41,468 nt of DNA from Chloroflexota bacterium. Its GTDB lineage: Bacteria; Chloroflexota; Limnocylindria; P2-11E. Made by a program: the position numbers and the translations under genes. Location: NCBI GenBank assembly GCA_005883775.1, contig VBEU01000056.1:1-41468 (forward strand). The letters run 5' to 3'. Of the stretch, positions 12,524 through 28,682 are shown piece by piece. Within the stretch, counting starts at the first letter, position 1. The number at the start of each line of letters is the position of its first letter. The notes below the pieces were generated by a model that saw only the letters and a list, made by a program, of their open reading frames with translations, did not search any database and was not told where the DNA came from.

Positions 12524-13093
12524 ATGACCGTCGTGGCGCGCACTGGGCAGAGCGACGACGTGGCCGAGATCCTCGTCACCGCCGAGCAGATCGCCGCGAA
12601 GGTCCGGGAGCTCGGCGCCCGCATCGCGACGGATTACCAGAGCAAGGACCTCGTGCTCGTCTCCATCCTCAAAGGTGCGCTCCCGTTCCTCGCCGACCTC
12701 ATGCGCGCGACGCCGATACCGCTCTCGCTCGACTTCCTCGAGGTGTCGTCGTACGGCGCGGGCACTGAATCGACCGGAGCGGTCCGGATCCTGAAGGACC
12801 TCGCGAACCCCATCGAGGGCAGGCACGTGCTGGTCGTCGAGGACATCCTCGACACGGGCCACACGCTCTCCTACGTCTTCGATCACCTTCGAGCGCAGCG
12901 GCCCGAGTCGGTCCGCCTCTGCGTGCTCCTCGACAAGCCCGCACGCCGCGTGATCCCGATCGAGATCGACTACCGCGGCTTCGAGATCGCCGACAAGTTC
13001 GTCGTCGGCTACGGGCTTGACTACGCCGAGCACTATCGGAACCTGCCGTTCGTCGGTGTGCTCAAGCCGGAGGTGTACGCGAGGAGATCGTGA
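12524..13093 (+). CDS. hpt: Hypoxanthine phosphoribosyltransferase
   Basis: ILKGA, VSSYG, VLVVEDILDTGHTL, LLDKP, FVVGYGLDY. Confidence 0.95.
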   Translation: MTVVARTGQSDDVAEILVTAEQIAAKVRELGARIATDYQSKDLVLVSILKGALPFLADLMRATPIPLSLDFLEVSSYGAGTESTGAVRILKDLANPIEGRHVLVVEDILDTGHTLSYVFDHLRAQRPESVRLCVLLDKPARRVIPIEIDYRGFEIADKFVVGYGLDYAEHYRNLPFVGVLKPEVYARRS

Positions 13094-14535
13094 TGATCTG
13101 GCTCGCGCGGATCGTCATCGTCGCGCTGCTCTTTGCCGCGATACCGCAACGCGCCGCCGCGAGCTCGCCACTCGCCCCGCTGCCGGCAACGATACGTGTG
13201 AACATTTCCCTTCTCGGTACGAGCTACGCGAAGATCGGCTCCACGGGATCGTTGAGTGTCACGCGAGACGACGGCGCGGTGCTCTACCAGGGCCCGAAAT
13301 ACACGATCGCGCGGCGCGGTGTGCGCCGGCTTGCCGATCCGACCCAGACCGCGGTCAGCGTCCGCGACCCCGACGAGCGGCGCAGCCTTGCGCAGCAGTT
13401 CCGCCAGGCGCGCCTCCGCGCGCAGGTCGAGGACATTCCGATCGTGACCATCCCGTTCGAGTTCGCGATCGAGGGCGATGGCTCGGACCCACTCGCGGCG
13501 CCGCTTTTCTCGGCGCCACAGATCACGCCACTCCACTACATAGCGAGCGGCGGGCTTCTCACGTTCAACGGGCGCGCGTATCGCGGCACGCTGGACCTCA
13601 CTCGCGATGACGACGGTGACATGATCGTGGTGAACCAGGTCGACACGGCCGCGTACCTGGCGTCGGTCGTCGGGTCCGAGGAGCCCACGACCTGGATGCC
13701 GGAGGCGCTCGCGGCGCAGGCCATCGCGGCGCGCACATACCTCTCGACCCACCTGGCGCGCCACGACAACTACGACCTCGAAGGCGACACGCGCGACCAG
13801 GAGTACGACGGCCTCGCCGGCGAGTCGACCTCGACGGTCAGGGCCGTCGACCGGACCGCGGGCATGATCGCCACGTACGGCGGCCGCCCGATCGAGGCGC
13901 TCTATTCCGCGAACGCGGGCGGCATCACCGAAGATAGCGAGAACGTCTACGCGAACGCGCTGCCGTATCTCCGCTCGGTCCCGTCGCCGGCCGACGACAT
14001 CGCGAAGGCCTCATCGTGGGGTCACACGAGCTGGGAGTGGACGACGGAGTTCACGGCGCCGCAGCTCCGCAGCTACATCGGCGCGCGCGGCATCGACGTT
14101 GGGGACCCGCAACGGATCGACATCACGGGAGTGACCGCGACCGGACGCGTGACCTCAGCGAAGGTCATCGGGTCGACGGGAACGCGCGACATCGGCAAGG
14201 ATCGGGCGCGGTATTATTTCGGCCTCCGCAGCACGCTCTTCACCGTCGCGACGCGTCCCGAAGAGACCGAGTACGTCGAGGCCGCGAACGCCGATCGCGT
14301 ACGTCAGCTCGACCTTCTCGGCGCGTCCATCGAGCGGACGTTCACGGTAAGCGTCAAGGATCCCGACCGCACGATCCACACGCTCCGCGTCCTCGGGTGG
14401 CAATACCGCCTTCCGGCTCGTTTCGTGTTCACCGGCAAGGGATACGGACATGGTGTTGGAATGTCGCAGTGGGGCGCTCAGGGAATGGCACTCGGCGGCA
14501 AGTCGGCGGAGGAGATCCTGAAGCACTACTACCCC
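13090..14535 (+). CDS. SpoIID/LytB-domain peptidoglycan lytic transglycosylase (no stop; runs into the GT87 part)
   Basis: Signal peptide; YRG, YLASVVGSE, EALAAQAIAARTY, DQEYDG, PYLRSVP, GYGHGVGMSQWGA..EILKHYY. Confidence 0.85.
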
Positions 14536-15579
14536 GCGGGCGCGCTCCTGGCGGTCGCGGCCTGGGCCATCGCGTTCCTGACCTGGTCCAGCGAGCCCGC
14601 CGGATATGACTTCGTCGCGCTGTATTCGGCCGCACGACTCGTCGCGACGGGCGCGGCTTCGTCGGTGACCGACGCCGACGCGCTGCTCGCGATGGAGCAC
14701 GCGACCCTGCCCCAGCGCACGGTCCTGCTCAACGACCCCAACCCCCCGGCACTCGCGCTGCTCATGGCGCCGCTCGGTGCCCTGCCCCTCGTGCCCGCCT
14801 ACGCGATCTGGGCGGCGCTCGGCGCGGCGGCCCTGGCGACGGCGGCATATCTGCTCGGCCGGCTCGCAGATCCGCGGCAGCGCACGCGCCTTCTCCCGTT
14901 CGCCATCCTCGCCCCGCCTTCACTCATCGCGCTCGCCGAAGGACAGACGACGCCGTTCGTGCTGCTCGCGGTCGCGGCGTCGCTCCGGACGCCGCCGCTC
15001 TGGTCGGGAGCGCTCCTCGGTCTTGCCGCATTCCGCCCGCAGCTTCTACCGCTCTTCGCGCTGGTCGCGCTGACCGAGCGTCGTCGCGCGATCGGGCTCC
15101 TCGCGATGACCGTCGGCGTCGCCCTCGTGTCGCTCGCAACCGTCGGCTTCGAGGGAATGGCGCGCTACCCCGATCTGCTCACGCGGATCGCCACCGAGCT
15201 CCGCCCGGGCGAGCTGGGCCTCGCTGCGCTCGTGCGCCGAGTCGCAGGAGGCGAGGACCTGGTCTTGAACACCGCGCTCGCCGCTGTGATCTACGCGCTC
15301 GGCGCGATCGTCGTGCTCGCGCGCTCGCGGATGTTCACGACGCGCGCTGTCGATGCGTCGACCTGGTCGATCCTCGCGGCGCCGCACGCGCTCCTGCACG
15401 ACGGCGTCATGGCATATCCCGCAGTGGCGCGAGCCGCGACAACGACAGGCACGACCCTTCTCTGGGTCGGCTCGGGCATCGCCGTCGCGTTGATCCAACA
15501 GGCGGGAATTCCGGTCGCGCCGCTGTGGCTGCTCGCTTTGTGGCTCTCAGCCGCGAATGTGGCGGATACCGTCGATTAG
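14533..15579 (+). CDS. GT87/DUF2029-like membrane glycosyltransferase (GT-C fold), in frame with SpoIID
   Basis: DFVALYSAARL, NPPALALLMAPL, GQ, FRPQL, PH..LHD; multiple TM helices. Confidence 0.75.
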   Translation, partial: PAGALLAVAAWAIAFLTWSSEPAGYDFVALYSAARLVATGAASSVTDADALLAMEHATLPQRTVLLNDPNPPALALLMAPLGALPLVPAYAIWAALGAAALATAAYLLGRLADPRQRTRLLPFAILAPPSLIALAEGQTTPFVLLAVAASLRTPPLWSGALLGLAAFRPQLLPLFALVALTERRRAIGLLAMTVGVALVSLATVGFEGMARYPDLLTRIATELRPGELGLAALVRRVAGGEDLVLNTALAAVIYALGAIVVLARSRMFTTRAVDASTWSILAAPHALLHDGVMAYPAVARAATTTGTTLLWVGSGIAVALIQQAGIPVAPLWLLALWLSAANVADTVD

Positions 15580-15878
15580 TCCTCGTCGCTTCGGTTTCGC
15601 TCTGTTATTCGTCGGAGCTGCCGTATCGGGTCCCAGCCGGATGGTGGTCGCCTGCTGGGGGAGAACCACGGATAGCCAGCTGCCATCCACTTTTCACGCA
15701 GGACTAGGTATCGGGCGGGCCGCGCAAGTACGTCCCCGCCCGCGGCGTCCTCGTATCCGAAGTGCGTTCCACACGATGAGCAGATTTCGAACGAGCCTGA
15801 GTCGCCGCGCCATGGTGGCTGCCTGAGGTCCGGGTAGCCACAGACCGGGCACACGTGGCTTGGCCGATCGAACGCCAG
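15576..15878 (-). CDS. Small Cys-rich (CPxCG...CxxCG) hypothetical protein
   Basis: CPVCGY...EICSSCGTHFGYED...W..PPSGWDP..QL; start uncertain (15854-15887). Confidence 0.65.
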   Translation of the reverse strand: MAFDRPSHVCPVCGYPDLRQPPWRGDSGSFEICSSCGTHFGYEDAAGGDVLARPARYLVLREKWMAAGYPWFSPSRRPPSGWDPIRQLRRITERNRSDED

Positions 15879-15883
15879 GGCGA

Positions 15884-16402
15884 CTACTCGCCCTTGAACT
15901 TCTGCGAGTTCCCCATGTGCGGCCAAACCCGCTCTTGCGCGATCGCCAGCAGCTGCTTGGTGTGATTCCGATCGTGAGAGACCCACTCATGGAGTAGGTC
16001 GCGCACGGTGAGGCGCCCGGCCATCGGATGCTCGATGCCCTTGGCGAGATCCGGCGGTTTCAGCGAACGAACGAGATTGATGCTGTCGTTGCGGACACCC
16101 ATGAACTCCATCCAGAGGCTCTGGCCTATCCGCGCGCAATCGTTCCGTTGCCTCGCAACCTCAGCCTGGTCCCACGAGCTGGTCTTCTCTTTGCCGGCCA
16201 GGATCTCGCGGATGCGGCCGGCGAATCCACGCTTCTCGGCCTCGACCAGGTGGCCGACGACCTGGTTGGCGCACCACTCCTTTTCGTCGAAGTGCCAGCC
16301 GCTGTCGGCGTCAAGGGCTGCGAGCTCGGCCTCGATGAGCGCACACGTCGCCTCGAGATACTCGGCGACCTGATCGGTCGTGAGCTCGGACGTCGTGGTC
16401 AT
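15884..16402 (-). CDS. DinB/YfiT-family protein
   Basis: WCANQVVGHL and HDRNHTKQL His triad. Confidence 0.85.
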   Translation of the reverse strand: MTTTSELTTDQVAEYLEATCALIEAELAALDADSGWHFDEKEWCANQVVGHLVEAEKRGFAGRIREILAGKEKTSSWDQAEVARQRNDCARIGQSLWMEFMGVRNDSINLVRSLKPPDLAKGIEHPMAGRLTVRDLLHEWVSHDRNHTKQLLAIAQERVWPHMGNSQKFKGE

Positions 16403-17433
16403 GTGACGAGCTGTGGTGCGCTCCGGATGGGGATCTTCACCTTGAGCACGACGTTACCGTCCGCGCGCGACTCGTGCGTCGACTCACCGTGGAGGAGCTC
16501 GAGACGCTCGCTGCGCCGAATGCCCGACTGGAGCTCGCCGTCGGGCGGCAGCTCCTTGCCGTCGCTCTGAAGGAGAACGTCGAGGGTGTCCTCCTTCCAC
16601 TGGAGGCCAAGGACGATCTCTTTCGCCTGGGCCTTGTCGATCCGCTCGACGAGCGAGTCTTGGATCAGGCGGAAGATCGCGACCTCGTCGTCGGACGGCA
16701 GGCGGCGGTCGCGGCCGGTGCTGGAGAAATCGATGCGTACACCGTGCTTGTCGATGAGCGTCTGGACATAGCGACGCAGTGTGGGAACGAGACCGAGGTC
16801 GTCGAGGATCATCGGCCTGAGCTCGAAGATGAAGCCGCGCAGCTCCTGCAGCGTCTTGTTGACCATCTGCCGGAGCGAGGCGAGCTCGCCCCGCGACTTC
16901 TGCGCATCGACATCGAAGAGACGCTCGCTGATCTCCGACTGGAGGACGACGTTCGCCATCGCTTGCGCCGGGCCGTCGTGCACCTGGCGCGCGATGCGCT
17001 TGCGTTCTTCTTCCTGCGTGTCGACGACGGCCTGAAGAAGACGGCTCTCGTCGATGAGCGGCGCGGTGTCAGGCGGAAGCGGCGGAGCCGTGTACTCGGA
17101 GAGCTGACGCTGCGCCGCGGCGAGGATCTGGGCACTGCGGTCGATGAGCTTGCGCTTCGACTGGAGGGAGTTGAGCTGACCTTCCATGGTCATGCGGCGG
17201 GCCATCGCGGCGGCGTGCTCGTCCGTCGCGCCGAAGATCTCCTCGCGCTGGAAATTCCCCGGATTCCTGCGAACCTCCTCGACCTTGGCCTTCATCTGGT
17301 CTTCGCGCGACTTGAGGCGGTTTACCTCGGTCTGCGTCGACTCGACGAGAAGATCGAGCTCGCGGATCTCGGCGGTCACCTTCTGCTGCTCGGTCGCGAT
17401 CTCCGCGAGGACGCTGGGTGGTGCCATGGTCAA
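16399..17433 (-). CDS. DegS-like soluble HisKA_3 protein with degenerate ATPase domain (probable pseudokinase)
   Basis: Coiled-coil N-terminus; EEERKRIARQVHDGPAQ and ELRPMILDDLGL intact; N, G1 and G2 boxes eroded. Confidence 0.8.
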   Translation of the reverse strand: MTMAPPSVLAEIATEQQKVTAEIRELDLLVESTQTEVNRLKSREDQMKAKVEEVRRNPGNFQREEIFGATDEHAAAMARRMTMEGQLNSLQSKRKLIDRSAQILAAAQRQLSEYTAPPLPPDTAPLIDESRLLQAVVDTQEEERKRIARQVHDGPAQAMANVVLQSEISERLFDVDAQKSRGELASLRQMVNKTLQELRGFIFELRPMILDDLGLVPTLRRYVQTLIDKHGVRIDFSSTGRDRRLPSDDEVAIFRLIQDSLVERIDKAQAKEIVLGLQWKEDTLDVLLQSDGKELPPDGELQSGIRRSERLELLHGESTHESRADGNVVLKVKIPIRSAPQLVT

Positions 17434-18134
17434 TTACCGATCTCCGGTCCCTTGATCCAACCTTGCCGGATCGCGTACACGACAGCCTGCGTGCGGTCGT
17501 TCACCGACAGCTTGCGCAGGATGCTCGACATGTGATTCTTCACCGTCTGCTCGGAGATAGCCAGCGCGTAAGCCACCTCCTTGTTCGTCATGCCTTGAGC
17601 GATGTTGTCCAGGATCTGCACCTCACGGGGCGAAAGCGGCGCGAAGACGTGCGTCGAACCTGGACCATACACGGAAAGCTCGCGGAACTCAGCGAGGACC
17701 TTGGACGCGACCGCCGGCCTGCTGAAGATCTTCTCGTTGATGATGAACTGGCCGGCCCGCACCTTGCGGATGGCGTCGATGAGCTCGGTCGGCTCGCAGT
17801 CCTTGTGGAGGTAGGCGGCCGCACCGGCTCGGATCGCCTCGAAGAGGATCTGCTCCTGATCCTGGGCGGTCAGGATGACGACGCCCACGGCCGGGAGCTC
17901 GCGGCGCACCCGCTGCGTGGCCTTGATGCCGGATAAGCGTGGAAGATCCACCTCGATGACGAGCACGTCCGGCTCGAGCTCGTTCGTCTTCGCGACCGCC
18001 TCTTCACCGTCGGAAGCGACGGCGACGATCTCCATGTCCGGTTCCTTCTCGATGACCTGCCGGATTCCCATTGTCGTGATCCGACTCGCGTCGGCCAGAA
18101 GGATCCGGATCGCGCGCTCGGGCCTCTCGCTCAT
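17430..18134 (-). CDS. NarL/DegU-family regulator with atypical receiver (Glu at phosphoacceptor site)
   Basis: REC domain with LLADA and PDVLVIEVDLP; LuxR HTH LSPRE..GMTNKEVA..SEQTVKNH. Confidence 0.88.
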   Translation of the reverse strand: MSERPERAIRILLADASRITTMGIRQVIEKEPDMEIVAVASDGEEAVAKTNELEPDVLVIEVDLPRLSGIKATQRVRRELPAVGVVILTAQDQEQILFEAIRAGAAAYLHKDCEPTELIDAIRKVRAGQFIINEKIFSRPAVASKVLAEFRELSVYGPGSTHVFAPLSPREVQILDNIAQGMTNKEVAYALAISEQTVKNHMSSILRKLSVNDRTQAVVYAIRQGWIKGPEIGN

Positions 18135-19144
18135 TCCTGCTCCTTAGTCCGCTCGTTGCGACGTGGGCGGAGCGGCTCGACCTTCTTTTCGACGGGCAGG
18201 AGCAGCGTGACCGCCGTTCCCTTGCCCGGTGTTGACTGGATCTGAAGCGAGCCCCCGATGAGCTCGGCGCGCTCTCGCATCGAGAGGAGGCCGACTGACT
18301 TCTTGTGACGGGCGGCCTTCACGAGGTCGAAGCCCATTCCATCGTCGGTCACGTGCAGCACCCAACTCTCATTCGCGCGCGACCAGGCAAGCCCGACGGT
18401 GCTGGCGTGCGCGTGTTTGTGGACGTTCTGCAGCGCCTCCTGCATGACCCGGTAGACGGCGAGCTCTTCCATCGGGGAGAGCCCGGTGTCCTTGAGATCG
18501 AGCTGGCTACCGACCTTGATGCCGCAGCGGGCTTCCCACTCCGAGGCGTAGTTGCGGATCGCCTCCGCGAGGCCGAGCTCGGTGAGCTCGGGAGGACGAA
18601 GGTCGTAGATCATCGCGCGCACCGAGTCGAGCGATCCACGGAACTGGCCCTTGAGATTCGCAAGCTCGGTCTTCAGGGTCTGACGGACCTCGGCCGGAGC
18701 GCGCTCCGTGATGCGCTCGAGGTACTCGACTTCGAAGATCGCGTTCGCAAGCACCTGGGCCGGACCGTCGTGGACGTCCCGGTAGAGACGCTCGCGCTCG
18801 GCCTCGAGGCTGCCGAGCACGCGCTGGGCGACCTCGACCGACACGTCGTCGCTGTCCGACGACGGATCGATGCCCGAGCCGAGCAAATAGGCAGCGCTCG
18901 ACTCGATGTGCTGGATCACGAGCTGCAGCTGCTTGAGACGACGGTAGTCACGCTGGGTCTCCTCATCGAGCTCCCCGTGCGTCGTCTCGCGCGAGCGGTC
19001 CTCGGCGTGTTTCTGATAGGTGCGACCGTACTTTTCGACCTGCTGCCGGAGAGTCCGGACGTCACGCCGCAGCGCGTCGACGATCGCGTCGAATTGCTCA
19101 TCGAGATCGTCGGATGCTCGCGCAACGCGGACTGGATCGCTCAT
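18131..19144 (-). CDS. DegS-like soluble HisKA_3 histidine kinase (intact)
   Basis: ERERLYRDVHDGPAQ, QEALQNVHKHA, DDGMGF, GLLSMRERA, STPGKGT; no TM. Confidence 0.9.
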   Translation of the reverse strand: MSDPVRVARASDDLDEQFDAIVDALRRDVRTLRQQVEKYGRTYQKHAEDRSRETTHGELDEETQRDYRRLKQLQLVIQHIESSAAYLLGSGIDPSSDSDDVSVEVAQRVLGSLEAERERLYRDVHDGPAQVLANAIFEVEYLERITERAPAEVRQTLKTELANLKGQFRGSLDSVRAMIYDLRPPELTELGLAEAIRNYASEWEARCGIKVGSQLDLKDTGLSPMEELAVYRVMQEALQNVHKHAHASTVGLAWSRANESWVLHVTDDGMGFDLVKAARHKKSVGLLSMRERAELIGGSLQIQSTPGKGTAVTLLLPVEKKVEPLRPRRNERTKEQE

Positions 19145-19165
19145 CGGCGGTCAGTCTAGCGGCGC

Positions 19166-20593
19166 TCAGCGCGAATTCGGGACGATGAAGAGCACGTATG
19201 ACGCGCTCTCGGTGACGATCGACCATCCCAGATCGCGTGCGCGTACCGCGAGGGGCGAGCCGGGCTTGACCAGAAGCGCTCGCGCACCGCGCCGTGCGAG
19301 AACATCACGCCAAGTGGGACCAAGAGAGACGAGGGTCTCGTAGTCGCGGAGGGCATCACCGGTGTATGGGAAGAGTCGGCCATCGATAAAGACCGGAGTT
19401 GCAGGCGCGTACCAAATCAGGAAACCGCCCCAGTCGTAGTCGTTCACGACGCCTGGGCCGGGCGGCAGAGACGAAAGCGCGCCGGCCGGATACGCCGTGA
19501 GGTTCGGCTCGCCACGCGCCACAAGACCCGCACCCACGATCGCCGCGAGCGCGACGACGAGCGTCGCGACGTCGATACGGGGCGATGGGACACGCGGGGC
19601 GAAGTCGGGGAGGCGCACGTTGATGCGAAAGTGCGCCGCGATCGCACCAATGGCCGCGGGCGCGTGCGCCGCGAGATATGGAGCGGAGGCGACCGCGAAG
19701 AAAGGCGTGTGACGCGCGGCGGTCATGGAAACGAAGAGCACCGGGACGAGAAGCGCGACATCGCGCAGTCCCGCCGGACGCGAGAGCTGCGCAGTCACGA
19801 GAACGGCGAGGACGATGAAGGCGAACAGGAAGCCGTATGGCTGTGTCACGTCGGGCACGCCCTCCTCCTGGATGACCCGAGGCGGCGAAAGGAAGTGGCC
19901 GCTTGCGGAGGTCCAGATGGAGATGCCCGACGGCGTGAGGAGCGTCACCGCGATGCAGGCGGCCACGACACCGACCGCAACGCGGCGCGCATCCGGTCGG
20001 CGAAGCCAGAGCTCGGCGCAGGCTATCGCCGTCACGGCGAGGCCGAGAGCGAACGAGGCGTGGAGATTCGCCCATACCAGGATGAGCGCCGGCGCGGCGA
20101 TGAGGACGCGCGGTCGCTCGGCCGACATCCGCAAGAGAAAGATGAGGACAGCGAAGCAGCAGAGGCCCATGAGCTGCGGGCGCTCGGTCCACGCGAAGCG
20201 CGTCAGCGCGATCGCGGGGAGTGCCGCCATCGCGGCGACGATCGGCCGGCGCTGCGCGTGGAGCGCCGTGGCGACGATGAGCGTCACGATCGCGGCGACG
20301 AGGACAGCGCGCAGCACGATGATCCCGTTCCAGCCGAGAGCCGCGTACGCCTCATACCAAAGGACCTGACCCAGCCACTGATCCGTGAGTACCGGCAATC
20401 CGTTCACCGACCACGAAAACGTGTCGACCCGGGCGAGACCGTCGGTCAAGGTCTGACGCCCCTGCGCGAGGTGCCAGAAGAGATCGGGATCGCCGACGGT
20501 CGCGAGAGTGGATAGCGCGCCGAAGATCCCGCCCGAGAGGAGCGGCAGCGACCACGAGAACGCGCGGGTCACGGCCGTGCCAGGACGATCCAT
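19166..20593 (-). CDS. Multi-TM GT-C-like membrane protein, paralog A
   Basis: DPDLFWHLAQGR, ERPQ, WANLHA, NDYDWGGFL, VFIDGR; start may be GTG 20572. Confidence 0.7.
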   Translation of the reverse strand: MDRPGTAVTRAFSWSLPLLSGGIFGALSTLATVGDPDLFWHLAQGRQTLTDGLARVDTFSWSVNGLPVLTDQWLGQVLWYEAYAALGWNGIIVLRAVLVAAIVTLIVATALHAQRRPIVAAMAALPAIALTRFAWTERPQLMGLCCFAVLIFLLRMSAERPRVLIAAPALILVWANLHASFALGLAVTAIACAELWLRRPDARRVAVGVVAACIAVTLLTPSGISIWTSASGHFLSPPRVIQEEGVPDVTQPYGFLFAFIVLAVLVTAQLSRPAGLRDVALLVPVLFVSMTAARHTPFFAVASAPYLAAHAPAAIGAIAAHFRINVRLPDFAPRVPSPRIDVATLVVALAAIVGAGLVARGEPNLTAYPAGALSSLPPGPGVVNDYDWGGFLIWYAPATPVFIDGRLFPYTGDALRDYETLVSLGPTWRDVLARRGARALLVKPGSPLAVRARDLGWSIVTESASYVLFIVPNSR

Positions 20594-21963
20594 CGACCAG
20601 CGCTATCTGTGGAACGCACCCGCCAGCCGTCCTCACGCAACGCGACCGCGAGCGGACGCTCTGGGCGGAGGAGCAGCTCGCTCACCTTGTATTTGTCGAG
20701 AAGGTCGCGCCAGCCCGGCCGGAGCGAGACAAGCGCGCGATAGTCGTCGAGCACACCGCCGAGGTACGGCACGTAGCGTCCATCGATGAACACCGGGCGC
20801 TCCGGCAGATTGAAGATGAGGTAGCCGCCCCAGTCGTACTCGTTCAGGAGAACGCCGTGTTCCTCGCGGAGTGCATCGAGCGCCGCGGCGGGATACGCGC
20901 GCGCGTCGGGATGAGTCGGGGCCGCGAGCGCGCTCGCGAGTGCGGCGATGACGAGCACGACAGCAATGGGCAGGCGCACCGGTGCCGGCAGCTCGTATCC
21001 GCGCCACCGTGGCACGAGCGCGGTGAGGCGCGCGCCGAGAAAGGCCGTCGCCGCGAAACAGAAGAAGAGCATCTGTCGCTGGGCGGTGAAGGCGAGATAG
21101 AGGAGGGGCGCCAACAGCATCGCCTCGAGGAGCGAACCACCGCGGAGGAGCGCGCTCCCGATCACGAGCAACACGAACCCGGCGAACAGGGCGCCCGCCG
21201 GCGTCACGACGTCCGGCGGAAGGAACTCGGTCAGGAAGCGCGGCGGGTTCAGGAAGTCCTCGCGCGCCGCGCCAGCGAGCTCCAGCGGCGCGGGGTTGAG
21301 GAACGTGACCGCGACGCACGCGATCGCCGTCAGAACGAGTGGGAGCCCGCGCCGTCCTTTCGTGAGGAGGCCCTCGGCCGCGAAGATCGCGACGACCGCG
21401 AGGCCGAGGAGATACCCACCATGCAGATTCGTCCACACGAGAAAAAGCGGCGGGAGGATGAGCAACCGTCGCGAGAAGCCAACGGGCAACGAAAGGAGGA
21501 GATCGAGGAGCGCGGGAAAAAGGGCCAGCGTGAAGAGCTGCGGCCGGTCGGTCCACGTGATCTTGGAGACGAGCAGGGCCGCGGCGACGAGTGGCAGCGA
21601 GATCCACCAGGCGGCTCCACCCCGGCGCGCGAGTCGCACGACAAAGAAGGCCGCGAGCGCGATGAGCGTCGCGCGGAGGACCGCGACACCGGCCCACCCC
21701 GCCGCCGTAAACGAGCCCGCGAAGGCGAGCTGCCCGAGCCATTCCCCGACCCCGAAGTGCATGCCCGCGACCGTCGAGGAGAAGATGTCCTGCCGGAGGA
21801 ACGCGTGGTGGTCGAGCATCCACCGGCCCATCGCGAGCTGCCAGTACGTATCGGAGTCGGTCGACGGCAGGCCCACCGCGATGATGAAGGCCGCACCCGC
21901 AACCGCGAGCGGGTACGCGCTCGCCGAGAGGTTCGCGGCTAGCGGTCGCGGCGCAGTAGCCAT
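20569..21963 (-). CDS. Multi-TM GT-C-like membrane protein, paralog B
   Basis: DSDTYWQLAMGR, DRPQ, WTNLHGG, NEYDWGGYL, VFIDGR. Confidence 0.7.
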   Translation of the reverse strand: MATAPRPLAANLSASAYPLAVAGAAFIIAVGLPSTDSDTYWQLAMGRWMLDHHAFLRQDIFSSTVAGMHFGVGEWLGQLAFAGSFTAAGWAGVAVLRATLIALAAFFVVRLARRGGAAWWISLPLVAAALLVSKITWTDRPQLFTLALFPALLDLLLSLPVGFSRRLLILPPLFLVWTNLHGGYLLGLAVVAIFAAEGLLTKGRRGLPLVLTAIACVAVTFLNPAPLELAGAAREDFLNPPRFLTEFLPPDVVTPAGALFAGFVLLVIGSALLRGGSLLEAMLLAPLLYLAFTAQRQMLFFCFAATAFLGARLTALVPRWRGYELPAPVRLPIAVVLVIAALASALAAPTHPDARAYPAAALDALREEHGVLLNEYDWGGYLIFNLPERPVFIDGRYVPYLGGVLDDYRALVSLRPGWRDLLDKYKVSELLLRPERPLAVALREDGWRVRSTDSAGRWIVLARP

Positions 21964-22634
21964 CGGACCGTGAACGCCGCGACGTCGCGCATCGCGAGGA
22001 ACGCTCCGGCCGGCGTGACGCCCTCCGCGATGCCCGCGATGCGCGGCCGGTGAGGGATATCGATCTCGCGGACGACGCGGCGGCGCGAACAGAGGGTGAT
22101 CAGTATCTCGGCCTCGGAGAAGTTCGACTCGCTGCGCGGCGGAGCGGACCGCAGCTCCTCCGCGCGGTAGAGCTTCACGCTGTCGATGTCGTGCACGGGC
22201 AACCGGAAGATGCGACGCAGCAGACCCGAGTACAGCTGTGCGATGACCACACGGCTTGCGGGATCGCGTCGCGGGACGCGGCGACCGACGACGAGCGCGG
22301 CGCCATCGCGGATCCCCCACATCGGTTCGAGCGCCGCGGCCGGCACCTGACCATCACCGGGAGTGAAGTAGATCCATTCGCCACGTGCCTCGGCGTAGAG
22401 GCGTTTCATCGTGAGAGGGATGCCCTCTCGCGACGGATTGCGCAGGAGTCTGAGCTCCGCTACTTCCGCGCAGGAGCGCTGGAGCTCGGCCCAGGTGCCG
22501 TCCGTGCTGCCGTCGTCGCACACGATCAGCTCGAAGCTCGAGGCGAGAGCGCGCGCGGCGTCGCGGTGGCCTCTCACGACCCCGGCCACCGTGACCTCCT
22601 CGTTGTGGGCAGGGATCACGATCGAGAGCTGGAT
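21939..22634 (-). CDS. GT2 glycosyltransferase (polyprenol-phosphate sugar synthase-like)
   Basis: LSIVIPAHNEE, DDGSTDGT, GRR..RRD; DxD motif altered (TPGDGQ); first canonical start at 22619 truncates strand 1. Confidence 0.85.
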   Translation of the reverse strand: MQLSIVIPAHNEEVTVAGVVRGHRDAARALASSFELIVCDDGSTDGTWAELQRSCAEVAELRLLRNPSREGIPLTMKRLYAEARGEWIYFTPGDGQVPAAALEPMWGIRDGAALVVGRRVPRRDPASRVVIAQLYSGLLRRIFRLPVHDIDSVKLYRAEELRSAPPRSESNFSEAEILITLCSRRRVVREIDIPHRPRIAGIAEGVTPAGAFLAMRDVAAFTVRWLLRRDR

Positions 22635-22643
22635 TGCGTCACC

Positions 22644-24164
22644 CTAGGGCACGGCGGCTGCGCCGCCGGTGTCCGGCGAGGCGCGAATCAGGCAAAAGAT
22701 GTTGCCGCGGACCGCGTAGATCCGGAGCGTCCCGCGCTCGATGGGCGGGGCGAGCCATGACACCGGATCGCCTCGATAGAGCCCGTCGTACGCCGAAAAA
22801 TGCGCTGCCTCCAGGACGATGCTTTTCGCGCCGTAACGCATGGCCACGCACGCCGCGGTGTCCAGGCCGTCCGCGGGGGTGACAACGACGGGCCGCTCCG
22901 CGATCCAGCGCCAGGCCGCGCCGTCGATCGCGAGGAACGATCCGGCCGGGATCGCGTCCAGCGCGGCGACCCGCGCGCGATACCCCTCATTGAACGTCGC
23001 GTCCCACGTCGTGAGTCCGACCACGGCAAGCGCGACCGCGGCGGCGACCGTGCCGCCGACGGCGAGGCGACGAGTCGCCGCATCGCGACGCTCGAGCCAG
23101 CGCTCGCCGCCGAGCGCGACGAGACCCATCGCGAATGGATAGAACGCCGCCAGCGAGTGGAAGTACGAGCCCCGCGTCGCGTGGAGCGGCCACACGAAGC
23201 TCTCCGCCACATAGATAAGGAGTGCGAGACCGGCGAACGCGCGCACGGAGGGGCGCTGCCAGCCGCCCTTCAGCCCGAGCGCCAGCGGGAATGCAAGGAA
23301 CGCCATGAGTCCGAACAGCGCAACCATGAAGTCCGACCAGAGCGCGCCGAGCCGCGTCGTAACGATCGTGGCCAGCTCGGCGGTGCCGGTCGGCGTGATC
23401 GCGAAGAAGTCCTCGTACCGCGCGAGGAACAGAGTGCGCGCGAGAAGGTCGGGCGATCCACCGAGGGCGACTCCGCGCAGGAGCCACGCGGCGCCGATCG
23501 CGAGCGCGACGGCGCTGCCCGCGACGCCGGCCGCGCGAGAGGATGGCCGCATTGCGAGGGCCAGAAGCGCGACGCCGAAGAGCGCGCCCTCGGCCCGGGC
23601 GAGGAACAGAAGTCCGACCAGAAGGCCACATATCGCGCCGGCACGCAGGTCACCCGTCGCCGCGCGTGCGAACACGATGAAGAACATCGTCCCGATGAGG
23701 GCCGCGATGGCGAACGAATCGAGCGTGACCCACGCGGGCGCGAACGCGCCTCCGCTGAGGCCCGCCAGGGCCGCGGCCACCAGCGCGGCGCGGGACGAGG
23801 CTCCGATCGACCGTGCCGCGGCGTACGCCACCGCGGGAACGAAGGCCGCGACGGCGACGATCGCGGCCTGAGCCGAGCGGAATGTTCCGAGGAGCGGCTC
23901 CAGGACTGCGATGCCGGTGGCCTGCACGACGGTGGCAAGCGGCATCCAGAAGCGGTGGCTCGCGATCGGAAGCGGGTCCAGGTGCGGCGCTTCGAGAAAG
24001 TTCCAGATGAAATCGGCGGTGAGACCTTGACCGTGAGCGAGCCGGCGCGCGACGTCGACGTAGTAGAAGGCGTCGGTAAAGCCTGGTTGGATCACGACGA
24101 ACGCCGCGGAGAGCACGCGGAACGCGACGAACGCGAGCGAAAGGCCGATGAGCCCGCGGCTCAC
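22644..24164 (-). CDS. ArnT/PMT-like GT-C membrane glycosyltransferase
   Basis: DAFYYVDVARRLAHGQG, FWMPL, LARAEG; many TM helices; GTGA overlap start. Confidence 0.7.
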   Translation of the reverse strand: MSRGLIGLSLAFVAFRVLSAAFVVIQPGFTDAFYYVDVARRLAHGQGLTADFIWNFLEAPHLDPLPIASHRFWMPLATVVQATGIAVLEPLLGTFRSAQAAIVAVAAFVPAVAYAAARSIGASSRAALVAAALAGLSGGAFAPAWVTLDSFAIAALIGTMFFIVFARAATGDLRAGAICGLLVGLLFLARAEGALFGVALLALAMRPSSRAAGVAGSAVALAIGAAWLLRGVALGGSPDLLARTLFLARYEDFFAITPTGTAELATIVTTRLGALWSDFMVALFGLMAFLAFPLALGLKGGWQRPSVRAFAGLALLIYVAESFVWPLHATRGSYFHSLAAFYPFAMGLVALGGERWLERRDAATRRLAVGGTVAAAVALAVVGLTTWDATFNEGYRARVAALDAIPAGSFLAIDGAAWRWIAERPVVVTPADGLDTAACVAMRYGAKSIVLEAAHFSAYDGLYRGDPVSWLAPPIERGTLRIYAVRGNIFCLIRASPDTGGAAAVP

Positions 24165-25201
24165 GCGGCCGCACCGATGCGTTCGGCGCGTTGCGTGCGG
24201 AGGTAGAGCACGCCACCGACGACGATCACCGAGAAGACGCTGACCGCTCGGTCGAGCACGGCGACGGCGACCGCGTCGTTCTGGGCGAGACCGAATCCGG
24301 TCGTCAACACATACACCATCGCGATCTCGACGAACCCGAAGCCCGCCGGAGTGAGCGGCACGGTCGTGAGGAGCGAGGACGAGACGGCCACAAAGATCAC
24401 CTGCGACGGCGGAAGGTAGAGCCCGAGCGCGAGGAGAACGAGCAGCAGACGGCTCGTCTCGAGGAACCAAACGAGGAGCGTCATCGGCCCGGCGACGGGC
24501 AGTGCGCGAAAGCTATGAAGGACTCCCTCTCGGAAGAGCCGTCCGATGCGGCGGACCTCCGCGGGAAAGAACCGCCCGAGCCGCGGACCGATCGCGTACA
24601 GCCCGACCAGGCCGATCAGGATGACCAGGCCGAGCGCGCTACCCGTGACATAGAGGACGTTCAGGTCCGGCAAGATCGTGCGTCCGAACGCCACGTAGCC
24701 GTCGACGACAAGCAGGCCGAACACCACAAAAAGGTCGAGAAGCCGCTCCGCGACCACCACTCCGACCGTGCGCGAGAGCGATATGCCGAACCGGCGCTTC
24801 ACCAGATAGCTCCGGTACAGATCGCCGAGCTTTGCGGGCACCAGACAGTTCACGAACCACCCGAGGAGGAGGATTTCGAGCAGGTCGCGCCCGAAGATCC
24901 GCGTGCCGCCCTCGCGCAGCAGTCGGGCCCATCGGATGGCGCGCACCGGGAACGACAGGTAATACACGACGAGCGCCGCGACGACGAACACCGGATCCGC
25001 CCGTCGCAAGGTGCCGAACGCTTCCGACCAGTCGACGTTCCGGGCGAAGTAGGCGATGAGCGCGATCGGGATCACGGTCGAGATCAGCTCGCGCCAGCCG
25101 AACAGCTGGCGTCGAACGGCCAGCTCGTCGGTGCGCCCCGCCGCGGCGGCAAGCTGCTCGATCGTCGGGTCCTCGACGTGCGTCGAGGGCCGCTCTTTCA
25201 A
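24161..25201 (-). CDS. UPF0104/lysylphosphatidylglycerol-synthase TM domain (flippase-like) protein
   Basis: RAIRW, NCLVPAKLGDLYR, ERLLD, PLTPAGFGFVE, DRAVS; TTG start overlapping PHP stop. Confidence 0.82.
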   Translation of the reverse strand: MKERPSTHVEDPTIEQLAAAAGRTDELAVRRQLFGWRELISTVIPIALIAYFARNVDWSEAFGTLRRADPVFVVAALVVYYLSFPVRAIRWARLLREGGTRIFGRDLLEILLLGWFVNCLVPAKLGDLYRSYLVKRRFGISLSRTVGVVVAERLLDLFVVFGLLVVDGYVAFGRTILPDLNVLYVTGSALGLVILIGLVGLYAIGPRLGRFFPAEVRRIGRLFREGVLHSFRALPVAGPMTLLVWFLETSRLLLVLLALGLYLPPSQVIFVAVSSSLLTTVPLTPAGFGFVEIAMVYVLTTGFGLAQNDAVAVAVLDRAVSVFSVIVVGGVLYLRTQRAERIGAAA

Positions 25202-25890
25202 CGAGTCGGGCTCGAGCTCTTTCGTCCGAGCCACTTCCGCAATCGGTCGTACCGGGTGAAGACGTGGACCCCGCCTCCGGAGAGCCGCCCTTCGGCGACG
25301 CCCTGACGGAGCGAGTCCAGGAAATCGGCGCGCCCCGCAAAGTCGGGCATCTCCACGAAGGCACGCCCGATCTCCACGGCGCGGTGCGCGTCGCTCCCGG
25401 CCGTGCCGACGATGCCGTGCGTCTTCGCGTACGCGGCGGCCGAGCGGTTGTTCAGGAAGATCGCCTCGCGAGCGTTGAAGATCTCGAGCGCGTCGATCTG
25501 CGAACGGAGTCGGTCCAGCGCGGGGCGGCGCATGTGATAGCGCCGATTGATGCTGAAGGGGTGCGGAACGATGGCGAGTCCGCCCTGATCGTGGATGCGG
25601 GCGATCGTCTCTTCCCCGGTCAGGTCACGCGGTATCGCGCGGTCGAGGAACAATCCGATGATCTCACCGTCGCGCGAGCTGATCTCTTCGCCGATGATGA
25701 CGCGAAAGCCATCCGCCAGCTCCCGCAGCCGAAGGCCGCCCTCGATGGTGTTGTGGTCGGTCGCGCAGATGACGTCGATGCGCGACGCGCGCACGGCGCG
25801 AGCCTGCTCGGCGATAGGAGTGCGGCTGTCCGGCGAAGCCTCGCAGTGCGTGTGCATGTCCACGCGAACCCGCTTGGCCTCGGTTCCTAT
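25198..25890 (-). CDS. PHP-domain phosphoesterase
   Basis: DMHTH..SPDS, TDHN, GEE, PHPF, GSDAH; start between 25863 and 25890. Confidence 0.88.
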   Translation of the reverse strand: MGTEAKRVRVDMHTHCEASPDSRTPIAEQARAVRASRIDVICATDHNTIEGGLRLRELADGFRVIIGEEISSRDGEIIGLFLDRAIPRDLTGEETIARIHDQGGLAIVPHPFSINRRYHMRRPALDRLRSQIDALEIFNAREAIFLNNRSAAAYAKTHGIVGTAGSDAHRAVEIGRAFVEMPDFAGRADFLDSLRQGVAEGRLSGGGVHVFTRYDRLRKWLGRKSSSPTR

Positions 25891-26990
25891 GTGACCCTTC
25901 CTTTTTCGTGCGCATCCTCGACGACGGCGCGCACGCGCTGGCGAAATCGTGACACATCGAAGCGGCGCGACGAGTCGCGAAGGGCTTTCGGTTGGAAACG
26001 CGCGCGCTCCGCGCGGAGCACACCCTCGGCGAAGGCCCGCGGCTCGGGCACGTCGACCAGGACGCCCTCCTCGCCATCGCGGACGATGTCGAAAACCCCG
26101 CCGGCGGCCAGGGCGACGACCGGCGCGCCCGAGGCAAGGGCTTCGGCGCAGACGATCCCGAAGTCGTCCTCGGCCGGGAATACGAGGCCGCGCGCAGACG
26201 CCAGCAGCGAACGGAGGGTCGCGTCGTCGGCCCGTCCGGTGAATACGACGTTCTCGCCGGCCATGCGCTCGAGGGCTCCGCGCTCGCGGCCTTCGCCGAC
26301 GACGAGCAGGCGCAATCCGATCTCGTTGAATGCACGAACCGCGACGTCGGCGCGCTTGTACGACGAGAGTCGGCCGACGAAGAGCCAGAAGTCACCGCGT
26401 TCGTCGTTCGCCGCGAACGAAGCGACGTCGACCGGGGGATGGACGATCTCGATGGTGTTGGCCGCTACGCCGTAATACCTCTCGATCCGACCCCGCACCA
26501 CGGTCGAGTTCGCCATCCATCGATCGAAGCGTCGCGCCGCTCTCTGGTCATCGTCCCGCAGCCGGCCGAGCAGCTCGCGCACGAGCGGCACGAGCGGTTG
26601 TGGGACTTCCTCCTGTAGGTACCGTTCGCTCCAGTCGTACAGGTAACGCGTCGGGGAGTGGCAGTACGCCACCGCAACGGTGCGATCCGCGAGGCCAATC
26701 TCCTTTATGAACGCGCTCGTGGAGACGAGAGCGACGTCGGTCTCGGGCGGCACACGCAGCGCGCGGGCGGCGTTCGGATAGAGCGGCAGCAGCAGGCGAT
26801 GGCTCTCCCCAAGCAGGAGCCATTGGAGATAGCTCGTTCGAAGATTCCAACCGGGCAGATCCCCATAGCGCCGACGATCGTGGAAGAACGTGTAGACGGG
26901 GGCCGCGGGCCACATCTCGTGAAAGGTCTCGACCACGCGCTCCGCGCCCCCGTGCGCGACGAAATACTCGTGCGCCAGGGCGAGCCTCAT
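25887..26990 (-). CDS. GT4 glycosyltransferase
   Basis: HEY..GGAERV, YCHSPTRYLYD, GRLSSYKR, EDDFGIVCAEALASGAPV. Confidence 0.9.
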   Translation of the reverse strand: MRLALAHEYFVAHGGAERVVETFHEMWPAAPVYTFFHDRRRYGDLPGWNLRTSYLQWLLLGESHRLLLPLYPNAARALRVPPETDVALVSTSAFIKEIGLADRTVAVAYCHSPTRYLYDWSERYLQEEVPQPLVPLVRELLGRLRDDDQRAARRFDRWMANSTVVRGRIERYYGVAANTIEIVHPPVDVASFAANDERGDFWLFVGRLSSYKRADVAVRAFNEIGLRLLVVGEGRERGALERMAGENVVFTGRADDATLRSLLASARGLVFPAEDDFGIVCAEALASGAPVVALAAGGVFDIVRDGEEGVLVDVPEPRAFAEGVLRAERARFQPKALRDSSRRFDVSRFRQRVRAVVEDAHEKGRVT

Positions 26991-27718
26991 CGGCCAAAAA
27001 TGCGCTGCCGCGCGACGAGCGCCGCGAAGACCGGCAGGACGCGCTGGCGACGCCAGCGGTGCGGCTCGAAGGCGAGCCGCCAGAGCCACTCGAAGCCGAT
27101 GGCGTGGACGATGCGCGGTGGCACGCGCACGCGCCCCGCCAGCTGATCGAAGACCCCTCCGACCCCGATGGCGGTCCGAACCGATGGGAGGAGCGGCAGA
27201 TTCCGGGCGATCCAGCGCTCCTGCGCCGGCATGCCGTAGGCGACGAGGAGGACGCGCGCACCGGTGTCCTCGATCCGCCGGCGGATCGATTCGTCGCTCT
27301 CCGGCGCAGGCGACCCCGCATACGTGCCCGCTACGCGGAGCGACGGGATCCGCCGCACCAGCGTCGCGGCCGCGCGGTCGGCAACGCCCGGCGCCGCGCC
27401 GAGCAGGAAGACTGGCCCGCTCGCGAGCTGAAGGACGGCGGGCACGAGCAGACGGCCGGGGACTCGACCGGGCAGAGGATCGCGCAGGACGCGCGAGGCG
27501 ACGAGGACCCCGGTCCCATCGGCGACGACCAGCTCGGACGCTAAAGCGATCTTCGCGAGCTCGGTATCGCGGCGAGCGAGCATGACGAACTCGGGATTCG
27601 CCGTTATCGCGAAGGTCCGTTGGCCGGCGGCATGACGTTCGATGATCCGTTCCGCTGCTGCGGCAAGGTCGACACGGTCGAAGCCCACGCCAAGGATGTC
27701 GACGCGCCGCGGCGCCAA
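26987..27718 (-). CDS. WecB/TagA/CpsF (GT26) glycosyltransferase
   Basis: TANPE, ADGTG, RVPG, FLLGAAPGVA, GMPAQE, GVGGVFD, EWLWRL..EP.RWRRQ. Confidence 0.92.
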   Translation of the reverse strand: MAPRRVDILGVGFDRVDLAAAAERIIERHAAGQRTFAITANPEFVMLARRDTELAKIALASELVVADGTGVLVASRVLRDPLPGRVPGRLLVPAVLQLASGPVFLLGAAPGVADRAAATLVRRIPSLRVAGTYAGSPAPESDESIRRRIEDTGARVLLVAYGMPAQERWIARNLPLLPSVRTAIGVGGVFDQLAGRVRVPPRIVHAIGFEWLWRLAFEPHRWRRQRVLPVFAALVARQRIFGR

Positions 27719-27728
27719 GGCTCGCTCG

Positions 27729-28682
27729 CTAGTGGACTGCGACGAGGCTTCTGCGGAAGAAGTCGAGATGCTCGAGCGCGAGACCCGTGCCCTTGGCGAC
27801 GCAGTAGAGCGGGTTCTCGGCTACGTAGCAGGCGACGCCGGTAACCTGCGTCAAGAGCTTGTCCATGTTGCGTAGGAGCGCGCCGCCGCCGGACAGGACC
27901 ATTCCCTTGTCGATGACGTCGGACGCGAGCTCGGGCGGCGTTTCCTCGAGAACGGCCTTCACCGCACCCATGATCTGCTGAAGAACGGGATCCATCGCTT
28001 CGGAGATCTCGTTCGACCCGATCGTGATCGTTCGCGGCAGACCGGCGATGAGGTCCCGCCCGCGCACCTCCATGGTGAGCTCGGGATCCATCGGCAGCGC
28101 CGAGCCGATCTGGATCTTCACGTCCTCGGCGGTGCGCTCGCCGATCATCAGGTTGTAGCGCTTGCGAACGAAGTTCGCGATCGCTTCGTCGAGCTTGTTC
28201 CCGGCGGCGCGGACGCTCCGCGACACCACGATGCCGCCTAGGGAGATGACCGCGATCTCAGCGGTCCCGCCGCCGATGTCGATGATGAGATTCCCGGATG
28301 GCCCCGATATCGGGATGTTCGCGCCGATCGCGGCGGCGAGCGGCTCCTCGATGAGATGCGCCTCGCGCGCGCCGGCTCGGATCGCGGCATCCTTGACGGC
28401 GCGCCGCTCGACGCTCGTGACGCCGGATGGAACGCAGATCATGAGCTGGGGCTGGAAGATGCGGACCTGGCCACACACCTTGTTGATGAAGTACCTGAGC
28501 ATGTACTCGGTGCCGAGCATGAGCCTCGCCTCCTCGCCTACGGCGACGATCCGGGGCCGGTTCGAGCCATCCTCCTTCGCCAGCGCGACGACTGATGGCT
28601 CGGTGAGCACGATCCCCTTCCCACGGACGTAAACGATGACGTTGGCGGTGCCGAGGTCGATGCCGATCTGGCGGGAGAACAC
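27729..28682 (-). CDS. mreB: Rod shape-determining protein MreB, with in-frame loss of about 22 codons
   Basis: [53 protein letters not shown]. Confidence 0.93.

Follow-up and report, generated by a model that had tools for sequence, protein, structure and literature searches.

Among the described signalling systems closest to the locus discussed here are DegS-DegU and DesK-DesR of Bacillus subtilis, in each of which a HisKA_3 histidine kinase is paired with a response regulator of the NarL family. HisKA_3 kinases carry a phosphatase motif, H-D-x-x-x-Q, and DegU is also active in its unphosphorylated form. Two further kinds of protein are relevant: receivers without an acceptor aspartate (aspartate-less or pseudo-receivers) and pseudo-histidine kinases, likewise a recognised kind. 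DivL of Caulobacter and RetS, which acts on GacS, are said to be kinase-fold proteins repurposed for binding over phosphotransfer, and DivL reportedly has no histidine and keeps its ATPase domain. Representatives of both kinds appear to stand side by side in a gene cassette of a Chloroflexota bacterium from the class Limnocylindria (GenBank assembly GCA_005883775.1, contig VBEU01000056.1, positions 1 to 41,468; this whole stretch of 41,468 nucleotides is called the window). Here an intact soluble histidine kinase (gene A) is followed by a NarL-type regulator with glutamate in place of the phospho-acceptor aspartate (gene B) and by a predicted DegS-type pseudokinase (gene C).

How pseudo-receivers are switched on and off in bacteria is called a mystery in a 2025 minireview, according to which nearly all characterised cases are orphans (PMC12632262). 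Glutamate is given as the commonest substitution in aspartate-less receivers, with 26% of cases; the first acid of their pocket is usually kept and the second usually lost, an acid being found there in 29% (PMC4395418). In the DesK-DesR pair, DesR uses one surface, alpha1-alpha5, both to dimerise and to bind DesK, and its activation by DesK in vivo proceeds without phosphorylation (PMC4251995). For the regulator of the window we propose, tentatively and with a probability of about 0.42, that B is a phosphomimetic pseudo-receiver that would be controlled by binding to the dimerisation and histidine phosphotransfer (DHp) domains of A and C.

A Regulator with Glutamate at the Acceptor Position

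Gene B (17430..18134, minus strand, as are all features of the cassette given below) encodes 234 residues that match the receiver domain PF00072 (Response_reg) with 82.5 bits and the DNA-binding domain PF00196 (GerE) with 78.8 bits. Its best solved relatives are VraR and NarL, its helix-turn-helix is one that we take to resemble that of DegU, and the databases name its family only 'NarL/FixJ family response regulator'. Among NCBIfam models, NarL and NarP are nearest to B, and MctS, UhpB, LiaS and NarX to A and C, all of them far under the equivalog cut-offs. In a HMMER alignment of B with the solved VraR, 'laDAsr' stands under 'fvDDhe' and 'lviEvdlp' under 'ilmDllme'. A canonical receiver has an acceptor aspartate at the end of beta3 and a metal pocket of two aspartates. 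In B, the acceptor position is held by E61 (codon GAG, read directly at 17952..17954) and the pocket reads D15-A16 (18087-18092). The VraR and ortholog alignments also place D63, two residues past the acceptor and hence at the D+2 position, at 17946-17948, T89 at 17868-17870 and K111 at 17802-17804. As a PF00072 receiver without the acceptor aspartate, B is an aspartate-less or pseudo-receiver. The original prediction, made from the letters of the window, had proposed a regulator without a canonical acceptor, in which the pocket reads DA, glutamate takes the acceptor place and the switch residues Thr and Lys are retained; the VraR alignment, the codon reading and the orthologs confirm each of these states.

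Is this state peculiar to one genome? The regulator alignment comprises 99 orthologs, namely the window, 18 loci from genomes that carry a G number and 80 further genome-contig loci. In the clade of the window, all 26 regulators have glutamate at the acceptor position. The D+2 residue is acidic in every one of them (EVD in 13, EAD in 10, EPD in one and EAE in two) and in none of the 73 Asp-type rows. The second pocket aspartate is absent from all 26 Glu-type rows; 25 read DA, DS or DP, and one, L058, has a gap at the column of the first aspartate. K111 is retained in 25 of the 26 and T89 in 24. At the nucleotide level, all 44 loci that match the Glu motif encode glutamate, 43 by GAG and one by GAA (some genomes were fetched twice, and the 44 include L006 and L009 from unpublished genomes), and the D+2 codon varies synonymously between GAC (28) and GAT (15). 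A soil-metagenome contig (X1, record 7, 17725-18587) spans the Glu codon; seven differences are listed for it, all of them outside that codon. In soil the module is abundant: two clusters of Glu-type regulators at 90% identity that were looked up have 199 and 547 members.

Pairwise ratios of nonsynonymous to synonymous substitution rates (dN/dS) against the window lie at 0.09-0.27 for A, 0.02-0.21 for B and 0.02-0.37 for C, values that indicate purifying selection on all three genes. Orthologs of C are uninterrupted open reading frames of about 344 residues, with no internal stops, in the 20 same-genus places listed, and a C query matches 40 of 41 related genomes (a count that includes the unpublished genomes G011 and G021, on which no conclusion rests). 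Could the unusual features of the locus nevertheless be products of error and decay, a sequencing mistake at the Glu codon together with a pseudogenised second kinase? The step from aspartate to glutamate is a small one, a single change at the third codon position. Against such an origin stand the glutamate at 44 of 44 loci drawn from many assemblies, the low dN/dS of all three genes, the open C frames and independent soil-metagenome contigs that match the window across the region. The first three of these rule out private decay or a sequencing error, which we regard as exceedingly improbable. Orthologs with aspartate and an intact second kinase, the finding by which the original prediction was to be judged mistaken, are not what the family holds: within the clade of the window, the glutamate (26 of 26), the eroded ATP boxes of C and the gene order (18 of 19 loci) are all conserved, the three points that the proposed alignment of orthologs was to test.

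A close paralog of B that bears the aspartate, and that would be the true substrate of the kinases, was also considered and rejected. No such paralog occurs in five genomes of the same genus with a completeness of 90% or more, where the next best regulator is at most 42% identical to B.

An Intact Kinase and a DegS-Type Protein Predicted to Be ATP-Blind

Gene A (18131..19144) encodes a soluble HisKA_3 histidine kinase of 337 residues with a charged, helical N-terminus. It matches PF07730 (HisKA_3) with 48.7 bits, against a cut-off of 24, and PF02518 (HATPase_c) with 46.2 bits. The H-box VHDGPAQ (18755-18775), found in all 19 complete orthologs of the Glu clade, is accompanied by an N box, QEALQNVHKHA (18410-18442), and a G1 box, DDGMGF (18329-18346). 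Every aligned ortholog of A has these boxes intact, along with G2 and G3. No transmembrane segment was found in A, B or C, where the highest Kyte-Doolittle mean over 19 residues is 1.07. The first reading of A as an intact kinase without a membrane anchor thus stands on Pfam matches, conserved boxes and hydropathy.

Gene C (16399..17433; 344 residues) matches PF07730 with 55.3 bits, and this is its only Pfam domain; PF02518 gives no match at E up to 1. Its own H-box, VHDGPAQ (16963-16983), is fully preserved: H152, D153 and Q157 are invariant and HDGPAQ is kept, together with the DHp signature, in 30 of 30 aligned orthologs, and HDGPAQ is present in all 18 complete orthologs from the Glu clade. 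The motifs of nucleotide binding have a different fate. In the alignment with DesK, a glutamate stands under the N-box asparagine (degenerate N box QDSLVERIDKA, 16630-16662), SDGKE stands against the DDGxG of the paralog A (degenerate G1 box QSDGKEL, 16549-16569) and G2 is missing, so that the N-box Asn, the D-x-G-x-G of G1 and G2 are all absent from C. This is the combination of a kept H-box and lost N, G1 and G2 boxes that had been read from the sequence, and it holds against both A and the solved DesK. Moreover, the Glu-clade orthologs retain the degenerate boxes as such, in the forms QDSLVERI[DE]K, QSDGKEL and RRSERL[ED]LL.

Does the fold of the ATPase domain persist? An AlphaFold2 model of C built with 30 orthologs (mean predicted local distance difference test score 79.6) contains a confident N-terminal helical hairpin at residues 8-113 and a confident alpha/beta domain at residues 215-335, joined by two DHp helices whose confidence is lower, which is to be expected when a dimerisation domain is modelled as a monomer. 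A Foldseek search with this model returns the cytoplasmic domains of DesK first (E 5e-11). The alpha/beta domain superposes on isolated ATP-binding domains, with template modelling scores of 0.75 for VraS and 0.78 for DesK and root-mean-square deviations of 3.2-3.6 A. The model thus points to an ATPase fold that survives although its nucleotide-binding motifs are gone.

Which of the two proteins is the DegS-type one? The N-terminal domain of DegS (PF05384) is matched by C in the window with 13.8-16.5 bits, under the cut-off of 27.6 and in the same register as in its relatives, and the N-terminus of C is the sole PF05384 match in the window's own genome (E 0.005). Among seven C-like kinases from other classes of Chloroflexota, five exceed the cut-off (29.7-60.3 bits); among ten A-type kinases none does, and a single faint match (E 0.094) lies in another register. 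Because most of these homologs of C carry the DegS domain and A-type kinases do not, C appears to be the DegS-type protein, a descendant of a DegS-type kinase, and A a second kinase of a non-DegS type. The kinase tree and the DHp signature agree, grouping C with downstream DegS-type kinases and A with the upstream type, with modest support in the Shimodaira-Hasegawa-like approximate likelihood ratio test (SH-aLRT 84 and 80). At that modest level of support they also reject C as a recent duplicate of A. The likeness to DegS-DegU drawn in the original prediction therefore holds, with its DegS role passing from A to C.

The genes are tightly joined. A and B share an ATGA overlap, read directly from the DNA. 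B and C share a TTGA overlap if C starts at TTG; the alternative start is an ATG two nucleotides past the stop of B. Of the Glu-clade loci L041-L059, 19 in number, 18 have the order A-B-C, and the contig of the nineteenth stops 159 nucleotides past B.

How Might the Regulator Be Controlled?

Starting from the residue states, homology, phyletic pattern, purifying selection and gene coupling, we infer phosphomimicry, binding and a direction of regulation along the following lines. The ancestral module would have consisted of an upstream A-type HisKA_3 kinase, a DegU-like regulator of the NarL family and a downstream DegS-type kinase. In Limnocylindria, C would have lost ATP binding, while the helical domain at its N-terminus, the DHp domain with the histidine and D-x-x-x-Q, and a folded ATPase-like domain remained. 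Because ATP binding is lost, C could no longer autophosphorylate; most likely it would use its DHp domain to dephosphorylate the regulator or to bind it as a partner. In relatives whose regulator bears the aspartate, C would most plausibly be a phosphatase-only or sequestering partner. In the order to which the window belongs, the phospho-accepting aspartate of B would then have become glutamate, with Thr and Lys kept, the second pocket aspartate already lost and an acidic D+2 gained. The result would be a phosphomimetic pseudo-receiver that canonical phosphotransfer could not switch, its glutamate held by Thr and Lys; indeed, glutamate may mimic phospho-aspartate by binding these conserved residues, according to the minireview (PMC12632262). 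Contacts between proteins would determine the output of B: at the alpha1-alpha5 face of the receiver, the DHp domains of A and C would either hinder dimerisation by competition or favour it, in the manner of DesK and DesR. Inputs would come from the ATP-driven state of A and from the separate N-terminal domains of A and C. Sequestration, an A/C heterodimer or transphosphorylation of the histidine, as put forward in the original prediction, may likewise act as the switch.

Several observations weigh against this proposal. All 19 complete orthologs of A from the Glu clade have intact H, N, G1, G2 and G3 boxes. Nor does the ATPase domain of A show relaxed selection: its median dN/dS is 0.27 in the Glu clade, compared with 0.30 and 0.25 in the Asp clades. 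Had ATP-driven phosphotransfer lost its use, one would not expect such constraint. The histidine and D-x-x-x-Q of C persist, even though the proposal leaves no phospho-aspartate for hydrolysis. In helix alpha1 of B, the usual kinase-docking helix, the Glu clade reads SRITT where others read H.LFR, and the DHp domain of C hardly changes. The glutamate is perfectly coupled with an acidic D+2. Replacement of aspartate by glutamate alone often fails to activate regulators (PMC4395418). The catalytic conservation of A, the histidine of C and the coupling of Glu with D+2 would fit a shifted phospho-acceptor or, equally, service of A and C to other regulators. A complex prediction with two copies of C (136-344) and the receiver of B (1-130) returned a score of 0.00 and a mark of 0.32 with no controls, and counts neither for nor against binding.

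If the acceptor has shifted, the pocket would be permuted to D15/E61/D63, the carboxylate at D+2 or Glu61 would take the phosphoryl group from A, and C would serve as a dedicated phosphatase. In addition to the coupling of Glu and acidic D+2 (26 of 26 Glu rows against none of 73 Asp rows), this is favoured by the retention of three acidic pocket residues (bar the gap at the first Asp in L058) and, nearly always, of Thr and Lys, by the intact catalytic boxes of A, whose ATPase is as constrained as in the Asp clades, and by the HDGPAQ of C. However, the D+2 residue is glutamate in two of the 26 (EAE), where the acceptor would not even be an aspartate, and other regulators of the same genome pair an acidic D+2 with the canonical aspartate (DVDM, DSDM, DDEM and DIDM). 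We know of no receiver that uses D+2 as its acceptor; the nearest case, the D57N variant of CheY, is reportedly phosphorylated weakly on a neighbouring serine, which also speaks against a shift. Furthermore, pseudo-receivers are described as generally enriched in negative charge in this loop (PMC12632262). A shifted acceptor is thus unlikely, and the claim in its most explicit form, that phosphorylation has been moved and not lost, with D63 or Glu61 as acceptor, A as donor and C as dedicated phosphatase, is less probable still. Were it true, this would be the first natural receiver with a relocated acceptor, along with a natural split of kinase and phosphatase over two proteins.

Alternatively, B could be constitutive or controlled at the level of its expression, uncoupled from A and C, with the kinases serving other NarL-type regulators or roles and the gene order simply inherited. 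The genome offers candidates, since it encodes further NarL-type regulators with canonical pockets: there are 18 GerE matches against four HisKA_3 domains in this metagenome-assembled genome, which is 72% complete, and each of the five same-genus genomes mentioned above has four to six other NarL-type regulators. Most characterised atypical regulators, moreover, work without a kinase (PMC12632262). Against uncoupling, the start/stop overlaps among A, B and C and the gene order are kept, and the near-complete genomes lack the close Asp-bearing paralog. Selection on the kinases also argues against it. Over 36 pairs, the median dN/dS in the Glu clade is 0.11 for the DHp domain and 0.27 for the ATPase domain of A, and 0.08 for the DHp and 0.17 for the ATPase-like domain of C; the corresponding DHp medians in the Asp clades are 0.30-0.36 for A and 0.24 for C (estimates by the NG86 method, which saturation may affect for the deeper pairs of clade II, see below), and the DHp domains are thus more constrained where the regulator bears glutamate. 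Uncoupling seems a doubtful explanation, about on a par with the shifted acceptor. The low median of the DHp domain of C in the Glu clade counts in favour of the proposed control of B by binding.

Order of Events in Limnocylindria and across Chloroflexota

Have these features arisen together? SH-aLRT support is 100% for both of the deep clades into which the regulator tree falls. Clade I comprises 28 rows, the 26 Glu-type regulators and two rows from a sister family that read DA ... DAH and so keep the aspartate. These two sit on a long branch, weakly nested among the Glu rows; the tree as drawn needs two changes, and a single origin of the glutamate is compatible with the data. Clade II comprises 71 rows, all with aspartate. 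An ATP-blind C adjoins Asp-bearing regulators both in the sister family and in one lineage of clade II, and Pfam finds HisKA_3 only in the two clade-II C proteins submitted to it. Since such a C accompanies Asp-bearing regulators in other families of Limnocylindria, its loss of ATP binding appears to predate the change from aspartate to glutamate.

Within clade II, 33 loci have C, and their regulators mostly have the DD pocket. In 26 loci without C in the available flank (flanks differ in length, and at one of these loci the sequence stops at the regulator), DD is replaced by Asp followed by Gly, Thr, Ser or Ala (Glu is also given) and the acceptor aspartate stays. Across clade-II regulators, then, the presence of C goes with DD and its absence with the lost second aspartate (C-less examples are L030-L035 and L060-L090). 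Searches of whole genomes agree: a C profile at E 1e-35 matches none of 15 genomes in the C-less family against 14 of 15 in the C-carrying family, and in five genomes of the C-less family that are 95-99% complete it matches nothing above the A orthologs. The whole-genome search with this profile also turned up one in-frame TGA within each of two matches (G037:C2:34364-35515 and G039:C4:375898-377055), either a real interruption or a match that overruns a stop codon.

The C proteins of clade II (L026-L029 and L069-L120) have a variable insert of about 40-60 residues, rich in Pro, Ala and Glu, at the place where G1 and the ATP lid would lie. With a median dN/dS of 0.53, the ATPase-like region of these proteins evolves faster than that of the Glu clade (0.17). 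ATP binding may have been lost by different routes in the two clades.

In Chloroflexota as a whole, 119 of 301 genomes have a match to the C profile at E 1e-35 (a tally that includes the unpublished genomes G200, G253 and G298, on which nothing rests), and 20 loci were fetched from classes other than Limnocylindria. The C-like proteins encoded there share the DHp signature of C (MHDGPAQ..., FIFDLRPMxLDDLGLxPTLRRY), and an hhalign comparison with the Limnocylindria C family spans 347 columns, the N-terminus included, with a probability of 100% and E 7e-75. Their N, G1, G2 and G3 boxes are intact in 20 of 20, and Pfam assigns HATPase_c to all seven that were analysed. Nine of ten adjacent regulators are canonical and the tenth has DE for DD; Asp, Thr and Lys are kept, and D+2 is usually Asn. 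Full triads with both kinases intact occur at L124 and L138. Seven loci have the regulator followed by the DegS-type kinase and no A, and ten have the DegS-type kinase with no adjacent regulator. L128, from genome G236, is a reciprocal case, in which the upstream kinase (L128:5186-5926, minus strand) has lost the histidine (LSDGPGQ) and the N box, retaining HisKA_3 as its only Pfam domain, and the DegS-type kinase and regulator are intact.

Because the homologs of C in other classes have an intact ATPase and regulators with the canonical aspartate, the triad of the window is best read as a derived state of a phylum-wide cytoplasmic module of two kinases and one regulator. The original prediction had presented it as a candidate for an undescribed system; as a stand-alone invention it is not supported by this distribution.

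Genomic Context and Expression

Gene C is followed by a gene for a DinB_2-family protein of 172 residues (15884..16402, minus strand; family assigned by Pfam), whose ATG overlaps the stop of C as ATGA. The coupled genes are thus four and not three. The four-nucleotide overlaps of the predicted triad are real, that between B and C on the condition of a TTG start, and the DinB_2 gene has to be added as the fourth member. It lies downstream of C in at least two further Glu-clade loci (L048 and L054).

Upstream of A, genes of the cell envelope on the same strand occupy 19166-28682 (minus strand), and the last of them ends 21 nucleotides before A. They encode MreB, a WecG/TagA-type transferase, a GT4 protein, a PHP protein, an LPG_synthase_TM protein, a GT2 protein and three large polytopic membrane proteins without a Pfam match. 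The signalling genes may therefore be the tail of a long envelope operon. Convergent to the cassette, an open reading frame of 829 residues (13090-15579, plus strand) encodes a SpoIID domain fused to a membrane glycosyltransferase region of the GT87 type, and genes containing SpoIID occupy the equivalent place in L048 and L057.

The neighbourhood differs in clade II, where a PMT-like membrane glycosyltransferase gene lies upstream and, in L063, L081, L100 and L105, the module is followed by genes of a Tad pilus locus, CpaB/RcpC and a receiver-ParA (TadZ-like) gene. In the three Glu-clade genomes searched, CpaB genes are on other contigs, and the link between the module and the Tad locus seems to have been lost in the clade of the window.

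A scan of 15400-20800 found no promoter-like site and two terminator-like sites, both on the plus strand, opposite the genes; with a mean of 2.0 in shuffled sequences, the result is uninformative. Contigs from two metatranscriptome libraries of one study cover parts of the cassette, X16 at 17316-17645, 17733-17883 and 18711-18907 and X17 at 17843-18041 and 18040-18190, and between them they span both the A/B and the B/C junction. Since DNA may be present in such libraries and the contigs give neither strand nor level, they are a weak hint that the cassette is expressed, and stretches without contigs carry no information.

Comparison with Known Systems

Among the papers listed by a non-exhaustive search of the literature on Limnocylindria together with DegS, DegU or response regulators, none mentions Limnocylindria. 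The relatives of the window supply natural controls for earlier evolutionary steps: loci where both kinases are live and the regulator is canonical, others that pair an Asp regulator with a dead DegS-type kinase, others again that lack the DegS-type kinase and whose regulator is without its second pocket aspartate, and one reciprocal genome, in which the upstream kinase is dead. With this series it becomes possible to test control of a regulator by kinase binding alone, the role of an ATP-blind kinase as phosphatase or as sequestering partner, and a shift of the acceptor.

How does the module compare with described systems? Like DegS-DegU, it combines soluble HisKA_3 kinases with a NarL-family regulator; proteins of the C family are labelled 'DegS' by JGI, in line with the PF05384 matches of the C-type kinases from other classes (5/7). 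In contrast to DegS-DegU, the DegS-type protein of the window is predicted to be ATP-blind, the regulator has Glu for Asp, an extra non-DegS kinase is encoded upstream, and the regulator gene precedes the DegS-type gene. DesK-DesR is similar in joining a HisKA_3 kinase to a NarL-family regulator, and of the solved structures DesK matches C best, in sequence (E 3e-6) as well as in fold (E 5e-11). However, DesK is a fully catalytic membrane thermosensor, and DesR has the canonical aspartate.

With the aspartate-less receivers, such as ChxR of Chlamydia and the plant pseudo-response regulators, B shares the glutamate at the acceptor position and exactly the pattern of a kept first and a lost second pocket acid. 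It differs in lying between an intact kinase and a pseudokinase and in being translationally coupled to both. C resembles DivL and RetS as a kinase-fold protein that is proposed to act by binding. Whereas in DivL the histidine is replaced and the ATPase domain kept, C has the reverse: the histidine and D-x-x-x-Q are kept, the ATP motifs are lost, and the protein is soluble and encoded beside its presumed partner regulator. The CmrRST system of Clostridioides difficile also has an atypical regulator inside a two-component operon, presumably acting with other parts of that operon, as the minireview describes it (PMC12632262). CmrRST comprises two OmpR-family regulators and one kinase, as opposed to two kinase-type proteins and one NarL-family regulator here.

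Each element of the module, the Glu pseudo-receiver and the pseudo-histidine kinase, is thus of a known kind. What is unusual is a non-orphan pseudo-receiver placed between a live kinase and a dead DegS-type kinase, the stability of this arrangement across an order of abundant soil bacteria, and the natural series of intermediate states among its relatives.

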